Notes: generated by a model from the letters alone, not told the origin. A stretch of DNA of 64,000 nucleotides from an uncultured Gemmatimonadales bacterium (GCA_963842945.1 CAWJIM010000016.1:32001-96000), one strand, 5' to 3'. Numbered from the stretch's first letter, positions 3,864 to 42,037 are shown. Made by a program: numbers and translations.

Positions 3864-3916
3864 ATTCTAGGGCTGGGGCATGATGCGCTGGTGGAATTTT
3901 CGTGAGGATCTCTTCA
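3864..3916 (-). promoter_or_regulatory. CTTCA-repeat promoter box 1 (RCC1 lipoprotein)
   Basis: Sense: TGAAG-N4-CCTCA-N6-TTCCA-N6-CATCA-N11-TAGAAT. Confidence 0.65.
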
Positions 3917-3956
3917 GGCAAACCTCACTCCGGCGTCAGGGACCGGAGCGTATGCT
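3903..3956 (+). promoter_or_regulatory. CTTCA-repeat promoter box 2 (Kelch K1)
   Basis: TGAGG-N4-CTTCA-N6-CCTCA-N6-CGTCA-N12-TATGCT. Confidence 0.75.
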
Positions 3957-4008
3957 GGGGCACGCTTCACAGGGATGCGGACGAGATCAGCACCGTCAGG
4001 AGGTTGGT

Positions 4009-4600
4009 ATGAGAAGACATTCAGCTGCTGCTCTTCTGGGACTCGGCTGCCTGCTGCTGGCAGGCTGTTCCGATCAGACTGCTCCATCCGGGATGCGGAG
4101 CGATGCCGGTCCGGACCTCGCGGTTACCCATAACACCTGGATCACCCGGAAGGACATGTGGAATACCGAGCGGACCGATTTCGCGACCGCCACGGTGCCC
4201 AATGCGGCCGGCCAGTCGGTGGTGTATGTGATCGGGGGCCGCGGCGCGTCGAACGTGGGGCTCACCAGTGTCATGGCGTATAACGTCGCCACCAACACCT
4301 GGACCCTGAAGAGCGCCCCTCCCCTGGCCTCGGTACGCGATGAGCGGAGCCGGTGTGATCAACGGCAAGATCTACATAACAGGGGGGTACCCGTACGGAT
4401 ATTCCAGTCCTCGGACGCTGATGTATGATCCCGCCAAGAACACTTGGGCCGAGAAGAGCCGCATGCCGGACGTGGAAGATCTGCAGGCCGGTGGTACAGG
4501 GGTGACCGGGGTCATCAATGGCAAGCTCTACGTGGTAACAGAGGGACGGTGCACTGATACGCGGCCCGACTATGACGAGAACGTTGTCCGTGATGGGTGA
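4009..4600 (+). pseudogene. Kelch-repeat lipoprotein K1, 3'-truncated after ~3 blades (frameshift ~4330)
   Basis: Lipobox LLAG-C; ATVPNAAGQSVVYVIGG, YNVATNTWT, GVINGKIYITGGY, GKLYVV then stop; lacks the second half present in paralogs. Confidence 0.75.
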
Positions 4601-4625
4601 TCGCGGTGAAACGGGCGCCGGCTGG

Positions 4626-6677
4626 TCAGAGCCGGGCCCGCCGAAGCAGCTGGGCGTTGACCGCAACGATGACGGTGCTGAGCGACATGAGGATCGCCCC
4701 GACCGCCGGGGACAGCAGGATCCCCCGGTGGGCCAGGATGCCCGCTGCGAGCGGAATGGCGACGATGTTGTAGCCGGCGGCCCACCAGAGGTTCTGCACC
4801 ATCTTGCGGTAGCTCGCCTTCGATAGCGAGACGATCCGCGGCACATCGCGCGGGTCGCTTCGAATCAGCACCACATCGCCGGCTTCGACCGCCACGTCGG
4901 TTCCGGCACCGATCGCGATGCCGACGTCGGCCGTGACCAGCGCCGGCGCGTCGTTCACCCCGTCGCCCACCATGGCGACGCGCTTGCCCTGGCGCTGAAG
5001 CTCCTGGATCTTCGCCGCCTTTTCCTCCGGAAGAACCTGGGCAAAGACTCTGTCGATCCCGAGCTCGGCGGCCACGGCTTCGGCCACCGGCTGAGCATCG
5101 CCGGTCAGCATGGCGACTTCGATCCCCAGCCGATGCAGCCGGTCGACCGCCTCCCGTGATTCGGGACGGATCGCATCGGCCACGCTGAAGGCCGCCAGGA
5201 CTCCGGTCCCTTCGATCAGGTAAATGACGCTCTGTCCCTTGGCCGCCGCCGCTGCGGTAAACTCGTCCAGCTCGCGGGGAAGCGTGAGGTTCAGCTTCCG
5301 CAGCAAATTCGGCCCACCGAGGGCGAGCTTCCGGCCATCCGACCACGGCCTCGACTCCGTAGCCGGACATGGCACTGAAGTACGTGGCGCGGGGAATGTC
5401 GTATCCCTGTTCCTGGGCGCTGGTCACCACCGCCCGCGCGATGGGGTGCTCGGCATCCTGCTCCATTGCGGCGGCCAGCCGGAGCGCCTCTGCTTCGGTG
5501 AGACCGTCAGCGTCCTCATCGCCACCACCCGGTGCTCGCCCAGGGTGAGCGTCCCGGTCTTGTCGAAGACCACTGCGTTGAGCAATCGGGCCTCCTCCAG
5601 GCCGCGCCGGTCGCGGACCAGGAGCCCGCCCCGGGCACCGAGAGTGGTCGAGATGGCGATGACCAGCGGCACGGCCAAACCGAGCGCGTGGGGGCAGGCG
5701 ATGACGAGTACGGTGACCAGCCGCTCGACCGCGAAGGCGGCATCCGCGCCCGCCGCCAGCCACCCGGCCAGGGTGACCGCTCCCGCGCCGAGCGCGACGA
5801 TGGTAAGCCAGTACGCGGCCCGGTCGGCCAGCGCCTGGGCCCGGCTCTTGGACTGTTGAGCCTGCTCGACCAGGCGCATGATCCCGGCGAGCGTGGTGCG
5901 CTCTCCGGTTCCGGTTACTTCAACCCGCAGCGATCCCGAGTCATTCACGGTGCCGGCGATCACTGGGGCGCCGGGGTTTTTCTCGACCGGCCGAGATTCG
6001 CCCGTGATCATGGATTCGTTCACGCTGCTGTGGCCTTCGCGTGCGATGCCGTCTGCGGCTACGCGGGCACCCGGGCGCACCAGGATCAGATCACCCGGTC
6101 GAAGCTCTGCGACCGGCACCTCGACCGGCTCTCCTGTCCCGCTGATACGCAGCGCGGTATCCGGCAGCAGCCTGGCCAGCTCGGCCAGGGCCCCCTGCGC
6201 CTGGGTGATCGACCGCATCTCGATCCAATGGCCCAGCAGCATGATCGTGACCAGGGTGGACAGCTCCTCCCAGAGCGGCATCCCGCGATAGCCCAGAGTC
6301 ACCGCCGCGCTGAAGACGAACGCCACCGAGATCGCCAGGGCGATCAGGGTCATCATCCCCGGCAGGCGCTCGCGCAGCTCGCGAACGGCTCCCTGGATGA
6401 ATGGCCAGCCTCCGTAGAGGAACACAGCGGTGCCGAACACCGGCGGGATCCAGCGGGCACCAGGGAACTGTGGCGGCGCGTACCCGAACGCCCGCTGCAG
6501 CATGTGACCCCAGATCAGGGTCGGGATGGTGAGAAGGAGAGAGATCCAGAACTTGTCCCGGAACATCGCGACACTATGACCGGCGTGTTTGGCATGCGGG
6601 TCGTGTCCGCCGGCCGGATGTTGGCGGTGTGCCGGGGTCGAAAGATTCGGTTGATGTTCGTGCTGCTGGTGGCGCAC
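4626..6677 (-). CDS. copB: Copper-translocating P1B-type ATPase (CopB-like); frameshifts ~5340-5500
   Basis: His-rich N-terminus, CPH in TM6, DKTGTLT, EHP, GDGVND, YN..AIP, MSLST. Confidence 0.85.
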
Positions 6678-6733
6678 GCCGCGCTCAGGCCTTTGTCTGA
6701 GGGCTCAGCCCAGGCTCATTCGCGCTTGCCCGG

Positions 6734-7102
6734 TTATCTAGAGTCATGATGTTCGGCATGTGCGCTATCGTCCCGATCCGACGGTGCCATCCGGGGTCCA
6801 CCCATCATGTGCTCCGAGTGCATCCGCTCCATCATCTGCATCATATGCGACCGCATCTGCTTGCGTTGGGCGACCAGCTCGTTGATCACCGCCGCCATGG
6901 CCTCGACTTTCTTTTGTCCGGTAGCACGATTCATCTCGCCCACCAGCCGGTCCATCCGGGCATCGGCCGCCTGGACCTGCTGCATCATCCTCTCATGGTT
7001 CATCATCATGGCGCTGTCCCGATGCGGAACCGGCTGTTGAGCGGATACCGCGACCGGAGATAGCGTGGCGGCCAGCAGAAAAATTCCAATGTGGCGAATC
7101 AT
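6734..7102 (-). CDS. Small exported Met/His-rich helical protein, possible copper binder
   Basis: Sec signal (..VAVSA-QQ); MMMNHERMM, MRSHMMQMMERMHSEHMM, HAEHHD; directly upstream of copB. Confidence 0.7.
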   Translation of the reverse strand: MIRHIGIFLLAATLSPVAVSAQQPVPHRDSAMMMNHERMMQQVQAADARMDRLVGEMNRATGQKKVEAMAAVINELVAQRKQMRSHMMQMMERMHSEHMMGGPRMAPSDRDDSAHAEHHDSR

Positions 7103-7162
7103 GGGTTCAGCTCCTGTATCGAGTGTACAGCATCAGCATTCTTTCGGCCAAGCTCACCCTGC

Positions 7163-9620
7163 TCAGCACTCATCCGCTCCGGCGGCAATCCTGTACGCTA
7201 CCCTGGCGAGCGAGTCGGGATTGAGCGATATCGAATCGATCCCGATCCGCACCAGATAATCGGCGAAGTCGGGGTAGTCGCTCGGCGCCTGGCCGCAGAT
7301 CCCGACCGGCCGCCCGTTCTGGTGGGCTGCGGCGATGACCATCTGGATCAGCCGCTTCACCCCGGGATCCCGCTCGTCGAACACTTCGCGGAGCAGCTCG
7401 GAGTCGCGGTCCACGCCGAGCGCCAGCTGGGTGAGATCGTTGGACCCGATGGAGAAGCCATCGAAAAGCTGGCTGAACTCGGCGGCAAGAATGACGTTGT
7501 TGGGGATCTCGCACATGACGTAGACCTGCAGGCCGTTCTGTCCCCGAATGAGGCCGTTCTCCGCCATCACCCGAAGCACCCGGCGGCCTTCCTCCACCGT
7601 CCGGCAGAACGGAATCATCACCTTGACGTTGGTCAGGCCCATCTCCTCCCTGACCCGCCAGATCGCGGCGCACTCCAGGGCGAAGGCCTCCCGATAGCGA
7701 TCGTCGTAATAGCGGGAGGCGCCGCGGAAGCCGATCATCGGGTTGGACTCCACCGGCTCGAAGTCCCTGCCGCCCAGCAGCCCGGCGTACTCGTTGGTCT
7801 TGAAGTCGGAGAAGCGCACTATCACGGGCCGGGGATAGAAGGCGGCCGCTATCTGGGCCACGCCGCTGGCCAGGCGGCTCACGAAGAACTCGGATGCCGG
7901 ATGAATGTTTGCCACCCGCCTCCGGATCTCGTCAGCCGCGGCCTCGTCGGTCACCCGCTCCAGGTGGAGAAGCGCCATCGGGTGGACCCCGATCCAGCTC
8001 GACACCACGAACTCGATCCGGACCAGCCCCACGCCGTCGCTGGGAAGTTGGGCCAGATGGAACGCCCGCTCCGGATTGGCCAGGTTGAGCATCAGAGGCA
8101 CCGCCGGCTTCGGCAGAGTCGCCGGGTCGATCTCCTGCCGGTCGAAGGCAACTTTCCCCGCGTACACTCTTCCGTCCTCGCCTTCGGCACAGGAGATGGT
8201 GACCTCCTGGCCGTCGCGGAGTACCTGGGTGCCGCGCACGGTGCCCACCACGCAGGGGATTCCCAGCTCGCGGGCCACAATCGCCGCGTGACAGGTGCGC
8301 CCTCCCTCGTCGGTGACCACGGCAGCGGCCTGCTTGAGGACCGGCTCCCAGTCCGGGTCAGTCATCGGCGCCACCAGCACCTCGCCGGGCTGGAACTGGC
8401 TGAGACCTTCGGTGGACCGGATCACTCTCACGCGGCCGGTGGCGACGCTGTTCCCCACTGCCTGACCCGTCAGCAGGATTTCGGCTTCCCCCTGCCTCCG
8501 GTAGAATGCCAGGCTGGGAGCAGTGGAGCGGGAGTGCACCGTCTCCGGCCTGGCCTGGAGGATGAACAGCTGGCCGTCGCGGCCATCCCGGGCCCACTCG
8601 ATATCCATCGGAGTAGGGCGTCCCGCCCGCTCGGAGTAGTGGTCCTCGATCTCGAGCGCCCACTGGGCCAGGGTGAGAACGTCGTCGTCGCCCAAAACCG
8701 CGGCCTGGCGCTCCCGCCGAGGCACCCGCACTTCTCGCACCGTCTTCCCGCTCTCCTCGGCGTAGATCAGTTTCATCTCTTTATCAGCAATCTCCCGGCG
8801 GATGATGGAGCGGTGCCCCTGCCGCAGGGTCGGCTTGTGCACCCAGAACTCGTCGGGGCGAACCCTGCCCTGCACCACCGTCTCGCCCAGGCCCCAGGCA
8901 CCGGTGATGAGCACCACGTCGCGAAATCCGCTCTCGGTATCCAGGGTGAAGATCACGCCGGCCGAGTCCAGGTCGCTCCGGACCATCTTCTGCACGCCGA
9001 CCGATAGCCCCACGTCGCGGTGCTCGATTCCCCGCTCGGCGCGATACACGATGGCCCGCTCGGTAAAGAGAGAAGCCATGCAACCCCGGACCGCCCGGTC
9101 GAGCGCTTCGAAGCCGCGGATGTTGAGATAGGTCTCCTGTTGCCCCGCGAAAGAAGCCGTAGGCAGATCCTCGGCGGTCGCGCTGGAACGGACTGCTACG
9201 TCGGTAGCCTCCTCGGTGTAATCCGTGGACAAGCGACTGTAGGCGGCCCGAAGTTGCTCGGCCACCTCGCTCGGCAGCGGCGCAGTGGCTATCCGGTTCC
9301 TGATTGACCGTGCAGTCCCGGCCAGGGCGGCGACATCATGCAGGTCTACACCCGCCAGCTCGGTGTAGATGCTCGAGTCAAGGCCGGCGGCTCGAAGGTG
9401 CAGGCGGAAGGCGTCAGCAGTGACGGCAAAGCCGTTGGGGACTCGGATTCCCTTGGGTCCTCAGTGCGCGGATCATTTCTCCCAGCGAGGCATTCTTCCC
9501 CCCGACCCGCGGAAGATCTTCCAGGTTGATCTCGCTGAAGGGCAGGACGTACTGGGGCGAAGCCGGTGGAGAGGGTGACGCCCAGGACGGGCGAGGAACG
9601 CTGGCGGTGGCATTGCTCAT
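7163..9620 (-). CDS. ppsA: Phosphoenolpyruvate synthase; frameshifts ~9300-9450
   Basis: VGGKNASLGEM, VRSSATAEDL, FAGQQET, TCHAAIVARE, GFSIGSNDLTQL. Confidence 0.93.
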
Positions 9621-9659
9621 GAGTGGGCCTCGAGATTCATGGTGGTTTCAACTCCTGAC

Positions 9660-9704
9660 AATCTGCGAGGCGCGATATGAAGGAACCATGAAGCGCAGAG
9701 GAAT
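9660..9704 (-). promoter_or_regulatory. CTTCA-repeat promoter box 3 (ppsA operon)
   Basis: Sense: ATTCC-N6-CTTCA-N6-CTTCA-N12-CAGATT. Confidence 0.72.
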
Positions 9705-9720
9705 CCGGGATCAGCCATTC

Positions 9721-9773
9721 GGAAGAAGTCTTCACGGTGGGTTCAGTCCGGATTCAGGAGCCGGGAGCAAACT
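9721..9773 (+). promoter_or_regulatory. CTTCA-repeat promoter box 4 (CBS gene)
   Basis: GGAAG-N4-CTTCA-N6-GTTCA-N6-ATTCA-N11-CAAACT. Confidence 0.75.
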
Positions 9774-9799
9774 TCAGGCAACCTTCTCCCGGAGGCACC

Positions 9800-10201
9800 A
9801 TGCTGGTTTCCGAACTGATGCAGACCGATCTCCAGGTCATCGCTCCAGATGCAGCAGTGAACGAGGCCGCAGTTACTCTGGCAGAGGCCCACGTTTCGGG
9901 CCTCCCGGTGGTGGACCGGCGCGGACACCTGGTAGGAGTCATCTCCAGCACTGATATCCTCGCTTCGGAAGAGGAGGTTGAAGGTGAGGCGGGGAGGGTG
10001 GCGCTGTTCGAGGAGACTCTGGTCCGCGATCTCATGACCCCGCGGCCCGTGACCGTCGCGCCAACGGCCACGGTCAAAGATGCTGCCCAGCTCCTGCTCT
10101 ATGCCGACGTGCACCGGGTATTTGTGATGGATGGCGACCGGCTGGTCGGCGTCCTCTCCACCACGGACATCGTTCGAGCGGTCGCCAACGGCCAGCTCTG
10201 A
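9800..10201 (+). CDS. CBS-pair domain protein
   Basis: GGAGG RBS; VSELM, SGLPVVD..G.LVGVIS.TD, VRDLM, LVGVLSTTDI. Confidence 0.9.
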   Translation: MLVSELMQTDLQVIAPDAAVNEAAVTLAEAHVSGLPVVDRRGHLVGVISSTDILASEEEVEGEAGRVALFEETLVRDLMTPRPVTVAPTATVKDAAQLLLYADVHRVFVMDGDRLVGVLSTTDIVRAVANGQL

Positions 10202-10365
10202 GTCAGGGCACGATGCTCAAATCTAGCCTGTCTCGTTCGGGCCTCATCGGGCACGTCATCATGCACGGCGCCGCGGTCTTCCACGGGATAGAGAGCACTC
10301 CGCAGCTCCCGCCGCACTTCCCCCATTCAATGAGATAGGGGCGCGGCTCTAACCGAACCTGATCG

Positions 10366-10419
10366 TGAAGCAATCTTCATCGCGAGTTCACGCTGGCAGC
10401 GGGAAGCGGTCGCCATCTT
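10366..10419 (+). promoter_or_regulatory. CTTCA-repeat promoter box 5 (nosZ operon)
   Basis: TGAAG-CAAT-CTTCA-N6-GTTCA-N6-(degenerate third unit)-N12-CATCTT, ending 36 nt before the nosZ ATG. Confidence 0.72.
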
Positions 10420-10455
10420 CGGGAGTAGGTGATGCGTATTCCACAAGGAGAGAAG

Positions 10456-12445
10456 ATGAGTTCGATCCGCCATACCGCCCTCGCGGCCGCGCTGGTTGCT
10501 ATCGGAATTTCCGGCTGTAGTCACTCCGGGTCAGGCCGGGTAGGCGACACCGGGGATGCCGCCAAGCAGGTGTACGTAGGCCCCGGCAAATACGATGAGT
10601 TCTATGCCTTCATGTCGGGCGGCTTCGACGGGCAGGTCGGGGTGTACGGCCTGCCGTCGGGCCGGCTGCTCAAGCACGTGCCGGTGTTTTCCCAGAGTGC
10701 GGAGAACGGCTGGGGCTACAGCGAGCAGACCAAGCCGATGCTGGCCACCAGCTACGGGTTCGTGCCCTGGGACGATGCCCACCATCCCCAGCTCTCCCAG
10801 ACCAAGGGCATTGTTGATGGACGATGGCTCTTCATCAACGGCAACAACACTCCGCGCATCGCCCGGCTCGACCTGACCCGCTTCGAGACCGAGGAGATTC
10901 TCGAGATTCCCAACTCGGCCGGCAATCACAGCTCGCCGTTCGTCACCGAGAACAGTGAATACGTCGTGGCGGGAACGCGATTCAGCGTGCCATCGCCGCA
11001 GCGGGACGTGTCGATCGAGGAATACAAGGACGCCTTCAGCGGGGTGCTCAGCTTCGTGCGGGTGGACAGCGCCACCGGTCACATGCAGCTGGCCTTCCAG
11101 ATGAGACTCCCGGCCTTCGACTACGACTTGTCCCACTCGGGCAAGGGCCCGTCGCACGGCTGGTCGTTCTTCACCAGCTACAACAGCGAAGAGGGCAACT
11201 CCAAGCTCGAGGTCAGCGCCTCGCAGAAGGACAAGGACTACATCGCGGCGGTCAACTGGAGACGAGCGGAAGAATGTGTCGCCCAGAACAAGGCTAAGAC
11301 CGAACCGGCCCGCTACGCCCACAACCTGATGGGCGAGGACGGTATCGCCCGGACCGAGTGGGGCTCCAGCGTAACGATGCTGACTCCGGCCGGCTGCCCC
11401 GGGATGGTGTACTATCTCCCCACTCCCAAGTCGCCCCACGGGGTCGACGTGGATCCCACCGGCGAGCTCATCGTGGCCGGCGGCAAGCTCGCGACGGTGA
11501 TCCCGGTGCACTCCTTCAGCAAGATGCAGAAGGCCATCGCGGACCGCGCCTTCACCGGCGAGGTGCACGGAATCCCGGTGCTCAAGTACGAGGCGGTGGT
11601 GGCGGGAGAGGTGCAGAACCCGGGCCTGGGCCCCTTGCACACCGAGTTCGACGGCAAGGGAAACGCCTACACCTCGATGTTCCTCGCGTCCGAGATCGTG
11701 AAGTGGAGCCTCAAGGACTTCAAGGTGCTGGATCGGGCGCCCGACCTACTACTCGATCGGCCACCTGATGATCCCCGGAGGGGACAGCCGCAAGCCCTGG
11801 GGCAAGTACGTCCTGGCGCTGAACAAGATCACCAAGGACCGCTATCTCCCCACCGGTCCGGAGCTGGCCCAATCGGCCCAGCTGTACGACATCAGCGGCA
11901 GCCGGATGAAGCTGCTGCTGGATTTCCCGACCATCGGCGAGCCGCACTACGCGCAGGCCTTGCCCGCCGAGCTGATCCGCGAACGGCAGCTCAAAATGTA
12001 CTCGCTTAAGGACAACAAGGATCCGTTCGCTGTGCGCTCCGAGATGAAGACCAGAGTGGACCGGAAGGGCAACGTGGTTGACGTGCTATTGACGTCGGTG
12101 CGGAGCCACTTCATGCCCGACAAGATCGAAGGAATTCGCCTGGGCGACACCGTCTACTTCCATGTGACCAACCTGGAGCAGGACTGGGACGTACCTCACG
12201 GCTTCGCCATCACCGGAGCAAACAACTCCGAGCTGCTGATGATGCCGGGACAGACCCGTACCCTGATGTGGGTGCCCCAGCGGGTCGGCGTCTTCCCCTT
12301 CTACTGCACCGACTTCTGCTCGGCGCTGCACCAGGAGATGCAGGGGTATGTGCGGGTCTCGCCCCGCGGCTCGAAGGTGGAGCTGGCCTGGAACAGCCCG
12401 ACCTACAAGGGGTGGAGAGGTCGAGGAACTGAATCCGCGGAATGA
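10456..12445 (+). CDS. nosZ: Clade II (Sec-type) nitrous oxide reductase; frameshift ~11740
   Basis: No twin-Arg leader, lipobox-like ISG-C; DAHHP, GNH, SPHG, GLGPLHTEFDG, EPH; CuA site HGF...CTDFCSALHQEM. Confidence 0.95.
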
Positions 12446-18914: not shown

Positions 18915-18953
18915 TGGGCCTCTCCCTATCTTGGAGGATCAGGATGATGCCCT

Positions 18954-19007
18954 ACTCTACAACCAAGGTCTGGAGAGGACGGTGAGATCGGGGTGAAGAA
19001 GTCTTAA
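18954..19007 (-). promoter_or_regulatory. CTTCA-repeat promoter box 6 (Kelch K2)
   Basis: Sense: TTAAG-N4-CTTCA-N6-TCTCA-N6-TCTCC-N12-TAGAGT. Confidence 0.68.
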
Positions 19008-19643: not shown

Positions 19644-19672
19644 TGTGCCCCCCTGGTGTGGACTGATCCACA

Positions 19673-19716: not shown

Positions 19717-19743
19717 GCCGGCTTAACGCCCGGACGAGGCTCC

Positions 19744-21843: not shown

Positions 21844-21881
21844 AGGGCTGCCTCCTGTAAGGGTGTTCACGTTACGGAGAC

Positions 21882-26243: not shown

Positions 26244-26249
26244 CAACAA

Positions 26250-26303
26250 TGAAGGATTCTTCATGGGCGGTTCCTCCCCACGTCATTCCTCCTATCAGAC
26301 ATT
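26250..26303 (+). promoter_or_regulatory. CTTCA-repeat promoter box 10 (protease-Kelch gene)
   Basis: TGAAG-N4-CTTCA-N6-GTTCC-N6-CGTCA-N12-GACATT. Confidence 0.68.
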
Positions 26304-26408
26304 AACTGTACGAACACGCTGAGAGTGACCGGGTCATTCCTCCAGATGCGGACCGCATCAGTTCCTGCCCGGTGCTTTCGGCAGGCTTTTGCGAGAAGGG
26401 AGTGACTC

Positions 26409-32492: not shown

Positions 32493-32583
32493 ATGGATCC
32501 TCCGGATCGAACCCTGGGTGAAAGACTCGCCCGTGGAAGCGAGGGGCTGGCGGGCGTCCTGTCCCAAGTAATCGGGACACTAC

Positions 32584-32628
32584 AGAATGCATCAGGAGGG
32601 CGGAAACCCGTGTGAACCCGGTGTGAAG
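32584..32628 (-). promoter_or_regulatory. CTTCA-repeat promoter box 11 (Kelch remnant)
   Basis: Sense: CTTCA-N6-GTTCA-N6-TTTCC-N12-CATTCT. Confidence 0.72.
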
Positions 32629-32638
32629 GATTCCATAC

Positions 32639-33774: not shown

Positions 33775-33839
33775 ACATCCTCCTAAAATCCCAGCCGGGG
33801 TCAGGGTCAGAATGGCCCAGGGACCCAGCTGATGGGAGG

Positions 33840-33893
33840 AAATTGCATCCAGAGTGGCGAAAGGAGGGTGAACCCGTCGTGAAGAAACCCTCA
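33840..33893 (-). promoter_or_regulatory. CTTCA-repeat promoter box 12 (Kelch K4)
   Basis: Sense: TGAGG-N4-CTTCA-N6-GTTCA-N6-TTTCG-N12-CAATTT. Confidence 0.78.
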
Positions 33894-33897
33894 GCAA

Positions 33898-35400
33898 TCA
33901 CGAAGCCGAGGTGCGAATGGGAACTCGTCCCAGCAGGCTGCCCCAGCTTCGGAGTTGGCTGGTGACCAGAAACAGCTCGTGTACCCGCCGTTGCCCGTTC
34001 CTGCCCCACTCCTGCCGAGCCTCAGGGAGTGCCAGCATCTCGTTGATGGCGCGCTCCAGCTCCTCCCGGTTGGAGGGATCGTCGATGAGCCGCCCGTCGA
34101 GCCCATCGCGGATCTGAGTTCGTGGCCCGACCGCCCGGGAGTTGCTGAGCACCGGAACTCGCTTCCACATGGCTTCGGCTATGGTGAGCCCGAAGCCTTC
34201 GCGCAGCGAGTTCTGCACGACGATCGTTGATGAGCGCTGCAGGGCATTGACCAGCAGCGCGTTCTGCTCCTTTGAGCGCATAGGTAAGGTGACGATGGCA
34301 ATGTCGTCCTGAACCGCTGGGTGCAGCGAGACGTATGCCCCTCGGAGCTCCTCCAGCACGTCCGTCGCTTCCGGATCGTCCTGGATGGCCTCCGCTTCCG
34401 GGCCGGCGAGCACCAGCCGCACTAAGTCCAGCCGGCGGCGGTGGACTGGATCAGGAGCGGTGTCGCCACCATAGATGGATCGCTTGAGAGAGGCGAACGC
34501 CTCCATCAAGGGGCGGAATCCCTTCAGGCGGTCCCAGCGGGAGACCTGCGTCACGATGGGCCGGGTAAGGAGACCGATGTCTTCCATGGCATTGGCTGGG
34601 GCGGAGCTTCCGTCCGGCAAGACACGGTGAGCGGGGTAAGCATAGGGCGGCTCCACCGTGGGTCCGGGACACACCACCAGTCCGCCGGTACAGAGCACCT
34701 GCACGGCACCGTTCAACGACAGCTCGCAATTCTTTTCCGAGAGCGGATCTATCCCGGGATGGATCACCGTGGATCTGCCGGCCAAGCGCTCCGGGATGTA
34801 CTCCGATGCCGAGAACACCGCGTGATCGTAGGCATCAAGATAGGGCGCCAGAAAGTCCCAGGCCGAGCGGGTCGCCGCGTTCTCCTCATCCAGCCCGATA
34901 TGGGAGCGCCAGATGGTCAGCACCGGGACGTGCTCACGCAGCATTCCGGCGAGCGGCAATGGTTGTGGGTCATGCACGATCAGGAGGTCACCGGGACGAA
35001 CCAGCGACTTGAGCTCCTCCGCGTTCTCCCGATTCACCTGCTCGAACAGCTCACGATCGGCCTTTTCCAGACCGGGATCACCGGCGCCGTGGATGAGGTT
35101 GTGAATCCGTTTGGTCAGCGGGAAGAAGGCGGGGTCCCGGGAGCCGATCACCACCCACTCGATGCGTACGCCGAGATCCCGTAACAGCGGGACCATGTTC
35201 ACCAGCATCTCGGCGACACCGCCACCGTGGGCGGTCGAGTTGACCATCCAGACCGTCCGTCCGCTCAGGCGGGGAAGCACCGCTGCGGCCTCACTCCGGA
35301 GGTCGTGCACTGCCTGGGCGAGGTGGGCGACGGCCTCGTACTCCGCCAGGGTTCGTTGCGTCTCCAGCTTAACGCGCTGGAGTAAGGATCGGGTCACCAT
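33898..35400 (-). CDS. GT4 glycosyltransferase, TreT-like trehalose synthase
   Basis: VNSTA.GGGVAEM, HDPQP, WR.HI, IDPLS.KN, QVSRWD.LKG, EGFGLT..EAMWK. Confidence 0.85.
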   Translation of the reverse strand: MVTRSLLQRVKLETQRTLAEYEAVAHLAQAVHDLRSEAAAVLPRLSGRTVWMVNSTAHGGGVAEMLVNMVPLLRDLGVRIEWVVIGSRDPAFFPLTKRIHNLIHGAGDPGLEKADRELFEQVNRENAEELKSLVRPGDLLIVHDPQPLPLAGMLREHVPVLTIWRSHIGLDEENAATRSAWDFLAPYLDAYDHAVFSASEYIPERLAGRSTVIHPGIDPLSEKNCELSLNGAVQVLCTGGLVVCPGPTVEPPYAYPAHRVLPDGSSAPANAMEDIGLLTRPIVTQVSRWDRLKGFRPLMEAFASLKRSIYGGDTAPDPVHRRRLDLVRLVLAGPEAEAIQDDPEATDVLEELRGAYVSLHPAVQDDIAIVTLPMRSKEQNALLVNALQRSSTIVVQNSLREGFGLTIAEAMWKRVPVLSNSRAVGPRTQIRDGLDGRLIDDPSNREELERAINEMLALPEARQEWGRNGQRRVHELFLVTSQLRSWGSLLGRVPIRTSAS

Positions 35401-35424
35401 ACCAATCGACAGCTGCTATGAAGG

Positions 35425-37281
35425 TCAGGGAGGGGTCTTGGCTGGAAGGGCTGCCCGGAGTGCATTCAGTATCACCGCCACATCGATTCCCTCCTGAAGC
35501 AGCGCTCCAGCGACCGGCGGGATATAGCCTAGACTGGCCACGACCATCGCCGCCCCACTCAGACCGAGCCCTGTCCAGATGCTCTGCCGGGCAATGCTCA
35601 GGGTGCGCCGGCTGATGCGGATCGCCTCGCCCACCCGGGTGGGATCGTCAGCCAGGATCACTGCGTCAGCGGCCTCGGCGCTGATGCCCCCGCCGCTCGA
35701 AGCCAGGGCAATTCCGACCGTGGCGGTGCTGAGCGCCGGGGCATCGTTGGTGCCGTCGCCCACCATGAGGACCGGCTCCCCTTCCTTCATCAGTCCCTGC
35801 ACCCAGGCGACCTTTTCTGCCGGGAGGAGATCACCGTGAGCCTCCTCAATCCCAACCGCCTGGGCTACAGCTGCGGCATTGGCCTGGTCATCGCCAGAGA
35901 GCAGGAGGATCCGCCGGACGCCCAGCCGCCGGAGCTGAGAAATGAATTCAGCCAGCTCGGGGCGGAGCCGGTCGGCATACTCGATCACTCCGGCGCCACG
36001 GCCGTCCACCGCCACATACGCCCTCAGCTCGACGCCGGGCGTCTGCGCCAGTAGCTCGCGCAGTGGCGCTTCAGCCGCCGGATGACGGTGCACCAGGAAG
36101 GACCAGCCACCCACAGTCACGGCGCGCCCTTCGACTGCGCCGGTCACCCCTTGGCCGGAAGCTTCGGTGACGTTCCCCGCCTCGGGCAGCTTAATTCCGC
36201 GAGCTGACGCTTCTTGGACGACGGTCCGCGCGAGCAGGTGGCCGGAGCCCTGCTCGATACTGCCGGCCAGCCGCAGCACGTCTTCCTCGGTGAAGGGCGG
36301 GACGGCAAGCACCCGGTCCACTCGGGGCCGGCCGATGGTGAGCGTGCCAGTCTTGTCGAACACAGCCACCACGATCCGGCCCAGCTGCTCCAGGGCGGTG
36401 CCGTGACGGAAGATGATCCCCCGGCGAGCCGCCCGGTTGATGCCGCCAACGATCGCGACCGGGGTCGCCAGGATGAGAGGACAAGGAGTCGCGACTACCA
36501 GCACCGCGAGCACCCGCGTCGGATCGCGAGAGAGAAGGTATGCCGCGGCACAAACCACCAGGGTCAGCGGCGTGAACCAGACTGCGTACCGGTCGGCCAA
36601 CCGCTGGAGCGGTGCCTTGCTCTCCTGAGCGGTGCGAACCAGCTCCACGATCCTGGCGTACTGGCTTTGGCTCGCCGGAGCCGTGACCCGTACCGTGAGG
36701 GGCCCCTCGAGGTTGAGGCTGCCACTCATCAGCCCGACATCGGGATGGGCGCTCACCGGCACCGGCTCCCCCGTCATCCGGGAGGCGTCCACGTGAGACC
36801 GCCCTTCGATGACGACCGAGTCGCAGGCCAGCAGCTCCCCGGGCCGGAGCAGGATAACATCTCCCACCGCGACGGTCTCGGCGGCGACATCTGTGACCTC
36901 ACCGGCGACCAGACGGTGAGCGATCCGGGGCGCTGCGGCCTCCAGCTCCCGGACCGCCTCCGATGCCCGGCCCTGAGCATAGCGCTCCAACGCCTCCCCA
37001 CCGGTCTGCATCAGGACTACGATAAGGCCGGCGAGCGGCTCCCTCAGAAGGAGTGAGGTGACAATGGCCAGCATCGCCACCAGATCGGCGGCAAAGCGGC
37101 CCGAGGCGATGCCCCGAAGCGTCTGCCACACCACTGGAATACCGGTGAGAACCAATCCAGCATTCCACACCGCGGCGGCCACATTGCTCCGCGCCGCGAG
37201 ATGGAGCAGCAACCCGCTGATGATGCAGAGAAGAGCGCCGGCCGGAAGGAGGTAGGTGCGGCCGACCTGACCCGGAGCTAG
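35425..37281 (-). CDS. Heavy-metal P1B-type ATPase (P1B-5-like, PCP/QExxD); start uncertain
   Basis: VATPCPL, DKTGTLT, GDGTND, LQEGID..VILNALR. Confidence 0.85.
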   Translation of the reverse strand, partial: LAPGQVGRTYLLPAGALLCIISGLLLHLAARSNVAAAVWNAGLVLTGIPVVWQTLRGIASGRFAADLVAMLAIVTSLLLREPLAGLIVVLMQTGGEALERYAQGRASEAVRELEAAAPRIAHRLVAGEVTDVAAETVAVGDVILLRPGELLACDSVVIEGRSHVDASRMTGEPVPVSAHPDVGLMSGSLNLEGPLTVRVTAPASQSQYARIVELVRTAQESKAPLQRLADRYAVWFTPLTLVVCAAAYLLSRDPTRVLAVLVVATPCPLILATPVAIVGGINRAARRGIIFRHGTALEQLGRIVVAVFDKTGTLTIGRPRVDRVLAVPPFTEEDVLRLAGSIEQGSGHLLARTVVQEASARGIKLPEAGNVTEASGQGVTGAVEGRAVTVGGWSFLVHRHPAAEAPLRELLAQTPGVELRAYVAVDGRGAGVIEYADRLRPELAEFISQLRRLGVRRILLLSGDDQANAAAVAQAVGIEEAHGDLLPAEKVAWVQGLMKEGEPVLMVGDGTNDAPALSTATVGIALASSGGGISAEAADAVILADDPTRVGEAIRISRRTLSIARQSIWTGLGLSGAAMVVASLGYIPPVAGALLQEGIDVAVILNALRAALPAKTPP

Positions 37282-37976
37282 AGCGCGGGCGAGATCTCCG
37301 CCTCGCCGCCCCGGCGCAGGCTGAATCCCACTCCCCGCACCGTGCTCAGGAGCCGCTCCCCCGCGGCCTCGCTCAGTTTCCGGCGCAGATTCCCCACGTG
37401 GACGTCCACCACGTTGCTCTCCGGATCGAAGTGCATGTCCCATACCTTCTCCAGGAGCGTGGTCCGCCTGACTACCTCTTCCGGATGAAGCATGAAGTAC
37501 TCGAGTAGCTGGAACTCCTTCGCTGTCAGATCCAGCCTCTTGTCATTGACCGTAGCAATGTGGCGCAACCGGTCCAGCGCAATCGGCGGATACCGCAGCA
37601 GGTCCAGTCGCTCGGCCCCGCCCCGGCGATGGAGGGCCCGGATCCGGGCCAGCAGTTCGTCGAACTGGAATGGCTTGGCCAGATAGTCGTCGGCACCAGC
37701 GTCGAGACCGCGGACGACGTCCTCTTTTGCGTCGCGCGAGGTCAGCATCAGGATCGGTGTCTTCCGGCCTTCCCGCCGGAGCTCGGTGGCCACCTGAAAC
37801 CCGTTCTTTTTGGGAAGCACGATGTCCAACAGGATCATGTCATAGTCGTAGACGTGGGCCAGCATCGTCGCCTCCTCCCCGTCAGGGGCGACGTCTACGA
37901 CATACCCCTCTTCCCTGAGGCCCTGCTCGATGAATCCGGCGACTTTGCGGTCGTCTTCCACAACGAGGATCTTCAT
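37278..37976 (-). CDS. OmpR/PhoB-family response regulator (no adjacent kinase)
   Basis: MKILVVEDD, LLD, GLDAGADDYL.KPF, LT.KEF.LL, SNVVDVHV..LR.K, TVRGVGF. Confidence 0.95.
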   Translation of the reverse strand: MKILVVEDDRKVAGFIEQGLREEGYVVDVAPDGEEATMLAHVYDYDMILLDIVLPKKNGFQVATELRREGRKTPILMLTSRDAKEDVVRGLDAGADDYLAKPFQFDELLARIRALHRRGGAERLDLLRYPPIALDRLRHIATVNDKRLDLTAKEFQLLEYFMLHPEEVVRRTTLLEKVWDMHFDPESNVVDVHVGNLRRKLSEAAGERLLSTVRGVGFSLRRGGEAEISPAL

Positions 37977-37982
37977 GTATGA

Positions 37983-38035
37983 AATCTGGGTGGTCGTGGT
38001 TAAGGCTGGCGGAAGGCCGCCTGAAGCTTTCTTCA
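37983..38035 (-). promoter_or_regulatory. CTTCA-repeat promoter box 13 (regulator's own promoter; probably leaderless)
   Basis: Sense: TGAAG-N4-CTTCA-N6-CTTCC-N6-CTTAA-N11-CAGATT-N6-ATG. Confidence 0.78.
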
Positions 38036-38132
38036 CGTTCGACAGTGGCCTGGAGCTCGCCCGACTGGGCGCCGGCGCGAACTCATAGGTCAATACTACC
38101 GCAGAGGTTCCGACCTCGAAACCCTCAGAAAG

Positions 38133-38177
38133 CTTCGCCCCGACTTCATCCTCCCTTCATAACGCTCGAGCTAAGTT
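38133..38177 (+). promoter_or_regulatory. CTTCA-repeat promoter box 14 (DUF2892-USP operon)
   Basis: CTTCG-N6-CTTCA-N6-CTTCA-N12-TAAGTT. Confidence 0.78.
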
Positions 38178-38233
38178 TGGGCCAGGCGAGAGATCCTGAA
38201 CCGATAGTGGCGGCAGTCGAAGGAGGACACATT

Positions 38234-38443
38234 ATGACTCGAAATATCGGCAACCTGGAACGGATCGCCCGATTGATCGTAGGCGTCCTGATCCTGGGTC
38301 TGTACGGCGCCCTCCCGTCGCCCTGGCGATACGTCACTCTGATTGGATTACTCCCTCTGGGCAGCGGCTTGACCGGCTTCTGCCCGCTATACGCCCAACT
38401 GGGCTGGAACCGCTGGCATCCGACCGGCAGGAGGAGCATATGA
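38234..38443 (+). CDS. DUF2892 (YgaP-like) small membrane protein
   Basis: M.RNIG.LER.AR...G ... G...L..G..G.CP.Y..LG; AGGAGG RBS. Confidence 0.85.
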   Translation: MTRNIGNLERIARLIVGVLILGLYGALPSPWRYVTLIGLLPLGSGLTGFCPLYAQLGWNRWHPTGRRSI

Positions 38444-39414
38444 TGCGCCAGATCCAATCCATTCTCGTGCCGCTCGACGGCTCCTCGCTGGCCGAGGAGG
38501 CTCTGCCCCTGGCCCAGGCCATAGCCGAGCGCTCCCGGGCCAAGCTCAAGCTGGTCCTGATCCATGAGCCCCACATCCTGATGGAGCCTGGCCCCGCCTA
38601 CACCAAGGTGGAGCTCGCGATGCAGAAGGCCGACCGGGATTACCTCAAGTCGGTGACTACCCGACTCCGCAGCGTGCTCGGCCGCTCGGTATCCTCGGCG
38701 GTGCTGCAGGGAATTCCGGTGGCACAGACGCTGGCCTCGTATGCCCGGGAGCTGGGTGTTGATCTGGTGGTGATGACTACGCATGGTCGGGGCGGGCTTC
38801 GGCGGGCCTGGCTGGGAAGCGTCACCGACCAGCTGATCCGATTCTCGGAGACCCCCATCCTGGTGGTTCGGCCCGGCGAAGCAGGAGTGGCCAAGCCCGC
38901 GACGGAGATAAAGGAGGTTCTGGTTGCTCTCGATGGGTCACCTCTGGCGGAGGCGGCGCTCGAGCCGGCTGTCACCCTGGCCAAATTGTGGGACGCCGAG
39001 ATCTCGCTGGTGCAGGTGGTTCGTCCGATCATTCTGACCGATGGTGCACCGCTTACCTTCCCTAGTGGCTATTCGGAACAGGTCACAATCTTCCGCCGCG
39101 AAGCCGCCCAGGACTACATCAGGGATCTGGCGGAGCGCCTGCGTGAATCGGGAATCAGAGCAAACGGAGTGGCCGTCATCGGCGCCGCTGTTCCCGAGAC
39201 ACTGATCGATATGGCAGCGCCCGAGCGGGTCAGTCTGATAGTGGCAGCCACCCACGGGCTGGGCGGTCTCAAGCGGATGGTACTGGGGAGTGTGGCTGAT
39301 AAGCTGGTACGCGGCGCAAACGTACCAACTCTAGTGGTCCGCCCTGCCGGCCGCAGGGCGCGCCGGAACTCGGAGGAGATGAATGTTCCGGTCAGTGCGG
39401 GCGCGTCCTTGTGA
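38440..39414 (+). CDS. Tandem universal stress protein
   Basis: Two ILV.LDGS..AE.AL / LVV..THG.GG....LGSV.D.L units. Confidence 0.92.
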   Translation: MMRQIQSILVPLDGSSLAEEALPLAQAIAERSRAKLKLVLIHEPHILMEPGPAYTKVELAMQKADRDYLKSVTTRLRSVLGRSVSSAVLQGIPVAQTLASYARELGVDLVVMTTHGRGGLRRAWLGSVTDQLIRFSETPILVVRPGEAGVAKPATEIKEVLVALDGSPLAEAALEPAVTLAKLWDAEISLVQVVRPIILTDGAPLTFPSGYSEQVTIFRREAAQDYIRDLAERLRESGIRANGVAVIGAAVPETLIDMAAPERVSLIVAATHGLGGLKRMVLGSVADKLVRGANVPTLVVRPAGRRARRNSEEMNVPVSAGASL

Positions 39415-39476
39415 TGTCGGAGCCGGTGTGAACCGGTCGTGACCGACCATCCATCTCGGTCAAAGCCAGCGGGCGA

Positions 39477-39530
39477 TGAAGCGATCTTAATCTGAGCTTC
39501 ATGCCTCCTTCGCAATGCCGGTCTCATTTT
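39477..39530 (+). promoter_or_regulatory. CTTCA-repeat promoter box 15 (Acg copy 2)
   Basis: TGAAG-N4-CTTAA-N6-CTTCA-N6-CTTCG-N12-CATTTT. Confidence 0.8.
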
Positions 39531-39574
39531 TGACCGGCATTGCCCCTGATCCGCCGAACCCGAGGAGGCACCCG

Positions 39575-40572
39575 ATGGTTCCGCAGAACCCCAGCGTCTG
39601 GGAGGTCACGCCCGATAACTTTCCCCATGCCGCAGCGATCGATACTCAGCTCCGCTTCCTTCTTCGCTACGCGATCCTGGCGCCTTCGCCCAGAAACTCG
39701 CAGCCCTGGACCTTCGCCATCCGCGACAACAAGGTCTTTCTGCTGGCCGACCATGGCCGGAGCCAGCCGGTACTCGATCCCGACCGGCGCGAGCTCTACA
39801 TCGGGCTGGGGTGCGCGCTGGAAAATCTCCTGGTGGCAGGCGAGCACTTCGGGCTCAGCCACGCGGTGAGCTACTTCCCGGACCGCTGGCATCCGGAACT
39901 GGCTGCAACCGTGTTGTTCGAGCCGGGCGGAACTCCCTCAGCGGTCCGGGTGGGCGCCACCCTAGAGACGATTCGGCGGCGGCACAACGACACGGCGCTG
40001 TACCATTCGATCCCGCTGCCGGAAGAGCTGTTGCGCCGGCTGACTGCCTGCTGCGACGAGCCCGATGTGCGGGTAGAATTGACCGAGGACAGTTTGTTGC
40101 ACGATTGGATTCAGGCGCTAACGGTGCAGTCCGATAGCGTGGACCTGGCTAACCCGGGCTTTCGGATGGAGCTGGAGTACTGGATGAGCCAGGGGATCTT
40201 CGGGCCGGACCGAAACGCTTCGGCAGAGGACAATCCGGCCACCATTCTTCAGCGGCAACGGGCGATTACCCTGGGTCAGCTCAGGGTGGAGAGCGCTCCG
40301 GTGCTGGGGCTGATTCGGGGGCGGGCGACAGCCATCTGGTCCATGTGCGCGCAGGACAGCTGTTCGAGCGCATCTGGCTCACGGCGACCGGCCTCGGCAT
40401 CAGTATCAACCCCATGAGTCAGACGCTGCGCCGGCCGGAGCTAAGGGCGGTCGTCTCCGAGCTGATGCCTGCGGTGGGCTGGATTCCTCAGCACCTGTTT
40501 CGGGTGGGATACTCCTCCGCGCCACCGAAGCTGCGAAGCCCTCGCAGAACGGTCGAGGACGTCATGCTCTGA
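39575..40572 (+). CDS. Acg-family nitroreductase-like protein (copy 2); frameshift ~40320
   Basis: Paralog of 15943..16939; AILAPSPRNSQPW, GCALEN, ANP.FRMEL.YW, PRR..EDV. Confidence 0.85.
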
Positions 40573-40624: not shown

Positions 40625-40702
40625 CCTCGCAGGCGAGTCGGATGGTCCTGGGGCTCGCCTACTGGAGATATAAAGAGGATCGACGCAAACGTGCTTAAGC
40701 GT

Positions 40703-41101
40703 TCAGACGCTCGCTGGTGCAGGTCTCGATTGCTTCTGCAAGACCCGCCCGACCGCCGCGCTGAGATCGTCGAGCAGGAAGGGCTTAGTAAGCACTGGAC
40801 GGTCAAGCTCTAGGTCGGAGCGAAAGGCTGACATAAAAATGACCTCCGGAGCGTTAGGTAATGCCGCCAGACGGTCGGCGAGTTGATAGCCATCGAGCTC
40901 GGGCATCAGTAGATCGCAGAGCACAAGGTGGACTTCTACGCCAGACTGCTCGAGTACCGTCAGTGCTTCTACGCCATTCCCTGCAGTCAGGACGCGATAT
41001 CCGGCCTGCTCAACCTTTCGCGCTATGACGCGACGAACACCTTCGTCATCGTCGACCACCAACACTGTGTGCGGGAGTAGCTCAGGGGCGGGGGCATTCA
41101 T
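40703..41101 (-). CDS. Single-domain response regulator receiver
   Basis: VLVVDDD, LVLCDLLMP.LDG, FMSA, KPF. Confidence 0.85.
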   Translation of the reverse strand: MNAPAPELLPHTVLVVDDDEGVRRVIARKVEQAGYRVLTAGNGVEALTVLEQSGVEVHLVLCDLLMPELDGYQLADRLAALPNAPEVIFMSAFRSDLELDRPVLTKPFLLDDLSAAVGRVLQKQSRPAPASV

Positions 41102-41281
41102 GAGACACCTTCTCTTGCTCGGGGGCGGCATAGGAATCAGCCGTATGGGGCCGACGGAGTGGCGAATCGCAGGAAGCGCAGGACGCACTGGAAGGGAGTC
41201 GCTGAATGAATCTACCCCGCACGCCGGTTGAGCACCAACGGAGCCCAGGAAGTGCCGTCAGCGCACCCCGGCCTGAGCTCG

Positions 41282-41560
41282 CTAAAACCGTTGGTGGAAT
41301 GTGATCTTCACCGTCTGTGGGCTGTTCGTCGCTCCGGTAGCCCACACCTTGATTTTGCCATAATAGGTGCCGCGAGGCAGGCCTGTGCCATCGACCCAAA
41401 CCTTCATGACAGAGGGCGCTGTCCCAATTCTCGGCGACCGCTTGATCCAGGTCGCACTCTTGGTGGATGTCCAGTTGAGGATCCCACCGCCGGTGTTGCT
41501 GATGGACAAGGAGCCTGACGACGGCCAGCAGAAGCCACGAACTTTAGTTCGACCATCACA
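41282..41560 (-). pseudogene. BACON/Ig-like domain fragment
   Basis: LSISNTGGG.LNWT....ATWI...P..GTAPS....V....L..GTY.G.I.V...GATNSPQTV..T; no clear start. Confidence 0.55.
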
Positions 41561-41649
41561 CCAGGCAGGGGTGGCGAGTTCGAAGCCTCTCCGACTGAGA
41601 GCGATAGTGCGGGCCGCCTCCGTCACCAGCGCAGTAGAGCGGCGGCTCG

Positions 41650-42014
41650 ATAAGGTCATTCCCTATGTTTTCCACCGGAACGGAAAGCCGATTCACGGAT
41701 ACCTAGACGGCTGGCGGGCAGCCTGCAAACGGGCAGCGGTCGTGAAGCGGGGCGAGCTGGAGGCGGTTGTCCGTCCCCACCTGCTCAACCGGACCCCTCA
41801 CGATTTCCGGCGCACTGCAGCGCGGAACCTCATTCGCGCTGGCGTCCCTCAGCACGTGGTGATGAAGCTCTGCGGCTGGAAAACGGATGCGATGTTCCGC
41901 CGCTATGCCATCGTTGATGAGCGAGACCTGCGGGACGCCGTGGCCAAACTAGCTGGATTCTGGGCACCCGACATAGCGCACAGTGAACGCTTCTTCACAG
42001 AGACATCACGATGA
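41650..42014 (+). pseudogene. Tyrosine recombinase/integrase C-terminal remnant
   Basis: YVF, HDFRRTA (HxxR), GW, MF.RY catalytic Tyr; N-terminal part absent. Confidence 0.85.
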
Positions 42015-42037
42015 CTTCTGAGCGTCGTTGGCATATT
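41984..42037 (+). promoter_or_regulatory. CTTCA-repeat promoter box 16 (Kelch K5)
   Basis: TGAAC-N4-CTTCA-N6-CATCA-N6-CTTCT-N12-CATATT. Confidence 0.75.

Follow-up and report, generated by a model that had tools for sequence, protein, structure and literature searches.

Two described two-component systems come closest to the one that we report here. The DosS/DosT–DosR (DevRS) system of mycobacteria joins soluble kinases, with tandem GAF-A and GAF-B domains before the kinase core, to a NarL-family regulator (PMC4082495) and an autoregulated regulon that includes USP, Acg, Hsp20, CBS, CtpF-like ATPase, baeRF10 and PRTase-type genes. CusRS/CopRS pair a membrane kinase bearing a periplasmic metal sensor with a regulator that acts on a TGACA..TGTCA box, the CusR regulon being very small. 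Here we analysed a 64,000-nt stretch of DNA from an uncultured Gemmatimonadales bacterium (the window; its own genome is G000, with contigs C24, C21 and C16 among others), in which 16 sites built from CTTCA repeats stand before a clade II nosZ operon and many dormancy-type genes. We propose, with a probability of roughly 0.7, that these sites are one promoter layout that would be read by an OmpR-family regulator (P0001) and its paralogue on C24, phosphorylated by a DosT-like kinase (P0002) when O2 falls, turning on nosZ and the dormancy-type genes. Judged by analogy, the system appears to resemble DosRS in what it senses and controls and CusRS in how it acts on DNA, and it belongs to neither. 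Literature searches, with supplements and regulon databases such as RegPrecise outside their scope, found no paper on this combination of kinase, regulator and motif.

In the sense of the downstream gene, the sites read [TGAAG-N4/5]-CTTCA-N6-CTTCA-N6-CTTCN-N11/12-YANNNT. With at most one mismatch, CTTCA-N6-CTTCA occurred 20 times in the window against 2.33 ± 1.36 times in 100 shuffles (maximum 6), and triple repeats 18 times against a shuffle mean of 0.6 (maximum 3). A pair spacing of 11 gave these 20 matches and a spacing of 22 gave 12, with 0–13 at the remaining spacings from 6 to 24. There are 16 non-redundant sites, including four divergent pairs; they span positions 3862–42038, in agreement with the extent given in the initial annotation. 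YANNNT lies 3' of the third unit in 15 of the 16 (after N12 in 11, after N11 in 4); the exception, site 10 (at 26259), has GACATT there. Strong conservation in the -10 element is limited to an A at -11 and a T at -7, and there is no -35 consensus. The 16-site repeat, its 11-bp period and spacing to the hexamer, and a motif-free part at 43.9–64 kb had all been described in an initial annotation made from the sequence alone, and all were borne out; a matrix scan gave no site above 13 bits in that last part. The sites, with the candidate binder and nosZ, are as follows.

3862..3917, minus strand: site 1, for an RCC1-repeat lipoprotein; central inverted repeat in common with site 2
3902..3957, plus strand: site 2, for a frameshifted Kelch lipoprotein
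9659..9714, minus strand: site 3, for ppsA, a small exported protein and a copB-type ATPase
9720..9775, plus strand: site 4, for a CBS-pair protein; divergent from the neighbouring site 3
10365..10420, plus strand: site 5, for the nosZ operon; strong in the inverted repeat and second unit, degenerate in the third
18953..19008, minus strand: site 6, for a Kelch lipoprotein
19671..19726, minus strand: site 7, for a DUF4389 protein
21881..21936, minus strand: site 8, for a metallophosphoesterase
21946..22001, plus strand: site 9, for cheB-like and hemG-like genes; ATG 5–6 nt past the hexamer, predicted leaderless
26249..26304, plus strand: site 10, for a frameshifted lipoprotein with terminal Kelch repeats; the sole site without YANNNT
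32583..32638, minus strand: site 11, for a lipoprotein region without propeller match
33839..33894, minus strand: site 12, for a Kelch lipoprotein
37981..38036, minus strand: site 13, in autoregulatory position before an operon of the regulator, a P1B ATPase and treT; predicted leaderless
38123..38178, plus strand: site 14, for YgaP-like and USP genes
39476..39531, plus strand: site 15, for an Acg-family oxidoreductase
41983..42038, plus strand: site 16, for a Kelch lipoprotein
37278..37976, minus strand: OmpR/PhoB-family response regulator P0001, 232 aa, candidate binder
10456..12445, plus strand: clade II (Sec-type) nosZ, frameshifted near 11740, followed by nosB-like, nosD, nosF and nosY-like fragments to about 16060

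The motif is not limited to the window, where the initial annotation had placed it: genome-wide there are 34 sites of at least 20 bits, 16 in the window and 18 on seven other contigs. A matrix built from those 18 scored all 16 window sites at 23.3–39.8 bits and the rest of the window at no more than 12.3, a test that is only partly independent because the 18 had first come to light through a matrix trained on the window. When we masked the window and picked sites by repeats alone, YANNNT stood at N12 in 13 of 46 held-out sites, compared with 0–2 at each of the other 19 offsets and a background of 1.4%. Searched genome-wide, the full model reached at least 24 bits 14 times outside the window and never in four shuffled genomes. 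According to a crude gene caller, 27 of the 34 sites are intergenic and less than 600 nt from a same-sense gene, against 10.7% of random positions; four of the seven that miss are window sites with frameshifted or weakly called targets. The CTTCA repeat motif is real and far above chance.

At the DNA, the sites follow the known CusR/CopR promoter layout with another half-site, which the initial annotation had missed. The E. coli cusC promoter, TGACA-N4-TGTCA-N6-TGTCA-N6-AATCA-N12-TAAAGT, has spacing identical to that of the window sites; the palindrome within it constitutes the CusR box (E. coli AAAATGACAAnnTTGTCATTTT; part of PMC11195947). Further likenesses are that CusRS/CopRS is the nearest regulator family by hidden Markov model, that it is autoregulated and that divergent promoters have a site in common. 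The half-site differs, however, being TGTCA there and CTTCA here (consensus TGAAG-N4-CTTCA), so that the sites do not fit the CusR box; the kinase here is a cytoplasmic GAF protein that has no periplasmic metal sensor, and 34 sites contrast with a very small CusR regulon. PmrA/BasR and PhoB boxes likewise seat a head-to-tail dimer on tandem half-sites (in the available part of PMC4660055), but differ in half-site, signal and targets; here there are three units and an inverted unit, and no curated cut-off is reached. Nor is TGAAG-N4-CTTCA with its 11-bp direct repeats a Dos box. Phased 11-bp repeats at a fixed -10 distance are the arrangement of an OmpR/PhoB-activated promoter, which supports the operator-promoter type originally suggested. 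In the neighbouring family, two sites (L026:2212-2267 and L027:2214-2269) that follow a regulator of 47% identity are intermediate between TGTCA and CTTCA units and have the same N12 spacing to the -10.

ArcAB, ResDE and SrrAB also use OmpR-family regulators for low-oxygen genes, ArcA through multiple 11-bp repeats; their kinases are membrane-bound quinone or redox sensors, not DosT-type haem GAF proteins, and their half-sites are different. ArcA blocks the -35 region as a repressor, and OmpR-family proteins can repress from such arrays. As the repeats here cover the -35 region, the array could be a repressor site, from which the regulator blocks the -35 under one condition, with control running in the opposite direction. 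We consider this very unlikely, since the lack of a -35 consensus and the weak -10 fit activator-dependent promoters, a fixed 11–12-nt phasing to the -10 is required for activation and not for repression, and the layout is that of the activated cusC promoter.

The candidate activator, P0001, has a PF00072 receiver and a PF00486 Trans_reg_C domain above cut-off, as expected of the OmpR/PhoB family, and falls below every cut-off among its 25 best NCBIfam models. A paralogue, 92% identical, lies at G000:C24:487704-488399 directly 3' of the kinase gene, and the two are sisters in a tree (support 87/89). Orthologues of 85–93% identity occur in 18 of 24 same-genus genomes. In all 17 same-genus orthologues with upstream sequence, a site stands 50–53 nt before the regulator ATG; the ATG is 5–8 nt after the hexamer, and the regulator transcript is therefore predicted to be leaderless and autoregulated. 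More distant copies are mixed, with a site at 77% identity (G036) and none at 76%, 66% and 64%. The C24 operator (G000:C24:487640-487693; L033:9644-9699) lies within the last kinase codons, so that the kinase C-terminal tail is encoded by the putative binding site.

PmrA reads bases with Asn188 and Asn196 (in the available part of PMC4660055). The recognition helix of P0001, SNVVDVHVGNLRRK, is almost invariant among orthologues and has two Asn eight residues apart. We take this pair to match that of PmrA and the PmrA half-site to be CTTAA, and because both are assumptions of ours the likeness is a lead only. In the recognition-helix segment P0001 has DVHVGNLR, CusR DVAVKRLR and PhoB DVHIRRLR, and the difference from CusR accords with the half-site CTTCA instead of TGTCA. 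The protein at 37278–37976 had been put forward as the binder; the site before all 17 same-genus orthologues with upstream sequence and motif counts that track the regulator support it as the likely reader of the CTTCA sites.

Kinase, regulator and motif travel together across Gemmatimonadales relatives. We counted matches to a sequence model of the 34 own sites. Kinase and regulator occur together in 18 of the 24 genus relatives, and these have 3–43 matches (median 10.5), compared with 0–3 in the six that have neither. Among family genomes in a phylum draw, the median was nine matches in 63 with the system, and the ten without it had at most three. The kinase is present in 62 of 74 family genomes, in 1 of 31 of the neighbouring family and in 4 of 45 elsewhere. 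G052 and G065 (19 matches, no kinase found) have the regulator at a contig end and are thus exceptions in appearance only. These counts bear on a rival idea, in which the motif is read by some other protein that came with the island (an alternative sigma factor or a Crp/Fnr protein) and the two-component pair is just one of the targets. G040 has eight matches and no regulator or kinase found (it is 87% complete), and there are two Crp-family genes in the genome. However, motif counts track the pair at both genus and family level, direct repeats of 11 bp belong to the OmpR/PhoB mode of binding (part of PMC4660055), the Crp proteins have zero and two cysteines, FNR boxes are nearly absent and the recognition helix is almost invariant, and we judge another binder highly improbable.

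Also absent from the initial annotation was the probable cognate sensor, which lies outside the window on contig C24 and is a kinase with a DosT-like haem-type GAF domain. P0002 (G000:C24:486440-487693, 417 aa) is a soluble GAF, HisKA and HATPase protein (GAF_2-HisKA-HATPase_c from residue 19) with a single GAF domain at residues 19–159; it is a class I (HisKA) kinase, unlike DosS/DosT. Its best PDB sequence matches are the DosT GAF (E value 4e-42) and the DosS GAF (3e-33). In a search with its predicted structure (83-row alignment, predicted local distance difference test 90), DosT/DosS chains took ranks 1–17, the DosT GAF superposing at a root-mean-square deviation of 1.9 Å with 51% identity; other GAF domains followed from an E value of 2.5e-9 and 26% identity down. 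The domain has the fold and sequence of a DosS/DosT GAF-A, with the proximal His and distal Tyr of the haem pocket. Across the kinase loci, for which we took the 80 best kinase relatives, His107 is conserved in 80 of 80, Tyr129 in 79 of 80 and Gly44 in 79 of 79 covered; in a residue numbering that we partly assume, they align with DosS His149, DosS Tyr171 and DosT Gly85. In DosS the haem is ligated by His149, and discrimination of O2 from CO and NO depends on Tyr171; DosT Gly85 stands where DosS has Glu87 (in the available part of PMC4082495). P0002 is likely a haem-binding, DosT-like sensor kinase and the source of the probable signal.

The 80 relatives all come from metagenome-assembled genomes of Gemmatimonadota, mostly Gemmatimonadales. 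A regulator follows the kinase within 100 nt in 71 of them, and seven of the other nine loci end within 135 nt. The junction carries a site of at least 20 bits in 65 of the 71. Some kinase relatives (P0012–P0026 and others) contain a PF13493 (KdpD-type membrane) domain in addition, and their automatic name is KdpD.

The kinase might instead bind haem and report mainly NO, CO or redox state, making the targets a nitrosative or redox stress regulon. NO and CO also activate DosS and DosT, and a redox-sensing role has been argued for DosS (part of PMC4082495); P0002 is without the second GAF, which sharpens ligand specificity in DosS, and its gene has a nirK-like gene two genes away. Against this, Gly44 is the DosT-type residue tied to stable O2 binding, with disputed kinetics (same part of PMC4082495), and the target set is of general hypoxia type; we regard the alternative as unlikely. 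The nirK-like gene (under cut-off; G000:C24:483406-485185, L033:5407-7186) stands behind a USP gene that is divergent from the kinase and preceded by a 12-bit site, and two small membrane genes adjoin it, one with a weak COX1 match.

The nosZ in the window is split near 11740 by one extra base relative to two related contigs of one public run, which is likely an assembly error. Its pieces score 578 and 318 bits against the Sec-type model TIGR04246 (cut-off 625), far above the Tat-type model, each falling short because of the frameshift; intact relatives pass. Among the genus relatives, 10 of 24 have nosZ, and every one of the ten bears the system. A site accompanies nosZ in all ten, directly upstream in five and about 660–710 nt upstream, before a small gene, in five; the two arrangements differ in NosZ sequence type, and the small gene is a cytochrome c in one locus. 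The degenerate third unit of site 5 is typical, recurring in most relatives' nosZ sites. Family-wide, we fetched 56 of 61 non-own upstream regions (three already scored in the genus set were omitted, and G110 and G054 left out) and dropped one as too short. Among 37 system-bearing family genomes, the region before nosZ reached at least 16 bits in 18 and at least 10 bits in 25, compared with none at 10 bits in 15 genomes without the system or in 3 with a distant kinase. In 15 of the 80 kinase loci nosZ lies less than 8 kb from the kinase, 12 of them with at least 16 bits and three with 11.5–14.7 bits at the same position; 7 of 1,500 random stretches reached 16 bits. In the neighbouring family, 14 of 31 genomes have nosZ. 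Because the site occurs incompletely (25/37 versus 0/15), the nosZ link is common and not universal, and neighbouring-family nosZ would be under other control.

Known nosZ regulators such as FixK2, FnrP/NNR, DNR, RegR and NssA-C also tie nosZ transcription to O2 or N-oxides, but in the available part of PMC11539149 they are of Crp/Fnr or RegR types, none being a haem-GAF kinase with an OmpR regulator. The whole genome has one strict FNR box (TTGAT-N4-ATCAA), and the system does not belong with FNR, DNR or FixK; no FNR box was found in 55 family nosZ upstream regions, nor in the last 400 nt of 14 more. Putative control of a clade II nosZ without an FNR box, as originally proposed, is thus supported. 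In 9 of 56 relatives the nosZ CTTCA promoter is overlapped or adjoined by another inverted repeat, ATCAY-N6-RTGAT, set in AT-rich sequence (about 680–780 nt upstream of nosZ in L182, L190, L198, L201, L203, L206, L207 and L173, and about 270 nt in L210); it is absent from the window, has eight copies in G000 and is possibly a second operator for a repressor or metal.

The nosZ link and the Gemmatimonadota host set this regulon apart from that of DosRS. The other target genes in the window are these.

2562..3785, minus strand: RCC1-repeat lipoprotein
4009..4580 (end approximate), plus strand: short, frameshifted Kelch lipoprotein
4626..9640, minus strand: ppsA (5' part frameshifted), small exported protein and copper-type P1B ATPase (frameshifted)
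9800..10201, plus strand: CBS-pair protein
17823..19643, minus strand: DUF4389 protein and Kelch lipoprotein, each preceded by a separate site
20845..21843, minus strand: metallophosphoesterase
22007..23245, plus strand: CheB-like methylesterase and HemG-like flavodoxin
26410..28662, plus strand: frameshifted lipoprotein with C-terminal Kelch repeats
32689..33774, minus strand: Kelch lipoprotein
33898..37212, minus strand: P1B-type ATPase and TreT-like glycosyltransferase behind the regulator, presumably one operon
38234..40417, plus strand: YgaP-like protein, tandem USP and Acg-family (Rv3131-like) oxidoreductase
42060..43157, plus strand: Kelch lipoprotein

The many window frameshifts are single-base (10456–16060, 4570–9640, 26410–28662 and 4009–4580, in nosZ, nosD, nosF, ppsA, copB and lipoproteins) and likely long-read errors. 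A tyrosine-integrase fragment at 41367–42014 marks the right edge of the accessory region, and a lone receiver protein (40703–41101) adjoins it.

Outside the window, sites lead to Hsp20, USP, CBS, two Acg-like genes, a small multicopper oxidase, YceI, TonB, an RND efflux unit, a copper ATPase region, a Kelch protein and the regulator paralogue. The 189 sites in the 80 kinase loci lead to the regulator (67), USP (35), nosZ (9), the small oxidase (8) and smaller groups; all 8 small oxidase genes and 24 of 53 USP genes there have a site. In 385 kb of motif-rich regions from ten relatives, picked by model matches and hence biased, 106 sites lead to USP, CBS, BON, Hsp20, Acg, ppsA, cation ATPases, radical-SAM HemN-like, HemG-like, PRTase, HPF-like, baeRF10, GroEL, CheB-like and cytochrome genes (the HemN and HPF labels are our reading of Pfam matches). 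The DosR table includes ctpF, hspX and Rv3131 (in the available part of PMC4082495), and the CTTCA target set overlaps it. By family match only, the set contains the dormancy-type members USP, Acg, HspX, CtpF and CBS, and the hypoxia-type targets seen in the initial annotation stand to that extent. It also overlaps the usual hypoxia set; some Rv-number identities in the DosR comparison are presumed. A 150–170-aa protein without Pfam match recurs behind the motif in at least six loci (among them L103:14992-15450, L229:1796-2281 and G000:C21:77486-77929). A frameshifted multihaem cytochrome cluster with MtrC/MtrF-like and c3-like matches (G000:C21:81100-87805, L032) lies between two sites, and no site of its own was found.

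Several targets are copper proteins (NosZ, copper ATPases, small laccase, cupredoxins), and the same regulator and sites might take copper or another metal as input through a different kinase, as a CusR/CopR-type regulon. The best NCBIfam match of P0001 is the heavy-metal regulator family, the promoter geometry equals that of cusC, and behind one site (G000:C21:72015-73801, L032:3016-4802) come a small gene, a regulator that consists of a receiver and lacks a DNA-binding domain, and a membrane kinase; the receiver-only form is also seen in G152 (L235:13800-15271). However, P0001 scores 232.3 bits against TIGR01387, under the family cut-off of 279.2; the kinase adjoining the regulator in 71 of 80 loci is of GAF-HisKA type and carries the DosT-type haem residues; USP, CBS, Acg, Hsp20, BON and HemN-like genes make up most of the targets; and the half-site is not TGTCA. 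We consider a metal input quite unlikely.

Propeller lipoproteins had been counted at seven Kelch/RCC1 loci and all assigned to the regulon. We found six in the window, one site each, so the assignment holds there (6/6); the lipoprotein behind site 11 (at 32628) has no propeller match, and its region (30550–32198, minus strand) has no Pfam match except a weak HEAT. Elsewhere the assignment fails, with a site at 1 of 11 propeller matches (C24:405-406k); a weak further Kelch match at C16:251k was left outside the 11. The Kelch type was found in 2 of 200 family genomes, one without a site and the other with too little upstream sequence, and a G011 Kelch copy has a 36.9-bit site. In this lineage the propeller lipoproteins count as accessory members, perhaps island passengers, and we would guess that they are surface proteins made on the shift to the low-oxygen state.

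Returning to O2-dependent activation by the kinase–regulator pair, we infer the following course. As in DosT/DosS, the kinase would stay off while ferrous haem, attached to His107, carries O2 that Tyr129 holds in place, and loss of O2 or binding of NO or CO would switch it on. Gene order suggests that phosphate would pass from the HisKA domain to the regulator. By analogy with CusR/PhoB-type promoters, regulator dimers would bind TGAAG-N4-CTTCA and the 11-bp-phased CTTCA units behind it, of which the last sits at the -35 position, and recruit the housekeeping RNA polymerase to the weak YANNNT -10. The same site before the regulator gene predicts positive feedback from a leaderless transcript, and those before USP, CBS, Acg, Hsp20, BON, HemN-like, HemG-like, HPF-like, P-type ATPase, ppsA, small laccase and clade II nosZ genes would make these the output.

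Several observations weigh against this reading. The window copy of the regulator is a duplicate without an adjoining kinase, the nearest regulator family is one of heavy-metal regulators, P0002 has one GAF domain where DosS/DosT have two, and some targets are the copper proteins named above. In G038 the pair is present and the regulator upstream has no site (1.6 bits), 4 of 71 kinase–regulator junctions score below 11 bits, 12 of 63 system-bearing family genomes have at most three matches, and 12 of 37 have no site of at least 10 bits within 1 kb of nosZ. Neither of the two nirK-like genes has a direct site (0/2). Conversely, G040 has matches and no pair, and G017 has two matches at E values of about 0.005 without the system. 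The bin G000 is 87% complete and 6% contaminated, and it contains many frameshifts. RNA contigs show no more than the presence of near-identical pieces of nosZ and CBS in two metatranscriptome assemblies. The genomes are kin and the 80 kinase loci overlap the genomes compared, so that counts and p-values overstate independence.

Gemmatimonadota nosZ is among the most abundant in soil and is thought to serve in temporary anoxia (in the available part of PMC10581226), and clade II nosZ has been the subject of few detailed studies (part of PMC11539149). The present analysis names a candidate sensor, regulator and operator for the nosZ step, present in 62 of 74 sampled family genomes and testable with purified proteins or a reporter, host culture being unnecessary. 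The matrix lets a reader of metagenomes tell which nosZ copies are wired to the switch, and a probable condition of expression is assigned to many uncharacterised genes (DUF4389, YgaP-like, Kelch lipoproteins). The DosT-type haem domain would here be used outside its known NarL partnership. We lean towards a chimeric low-oxygen master switch in a large uncultured soil Gemmatimonadales family, in which a DosT-type haem sensor on a class I kinase works with a CusR-like regulator whose helix has been re-specified, a DosR-like regulon has been rebuilt by convergence, and clade II nosZ has been captured more than once. If this is true, N2O consumption by abundant soil non-denitrifiers would be set by haem-sensed O2/NO and not by FNR-type proteins.

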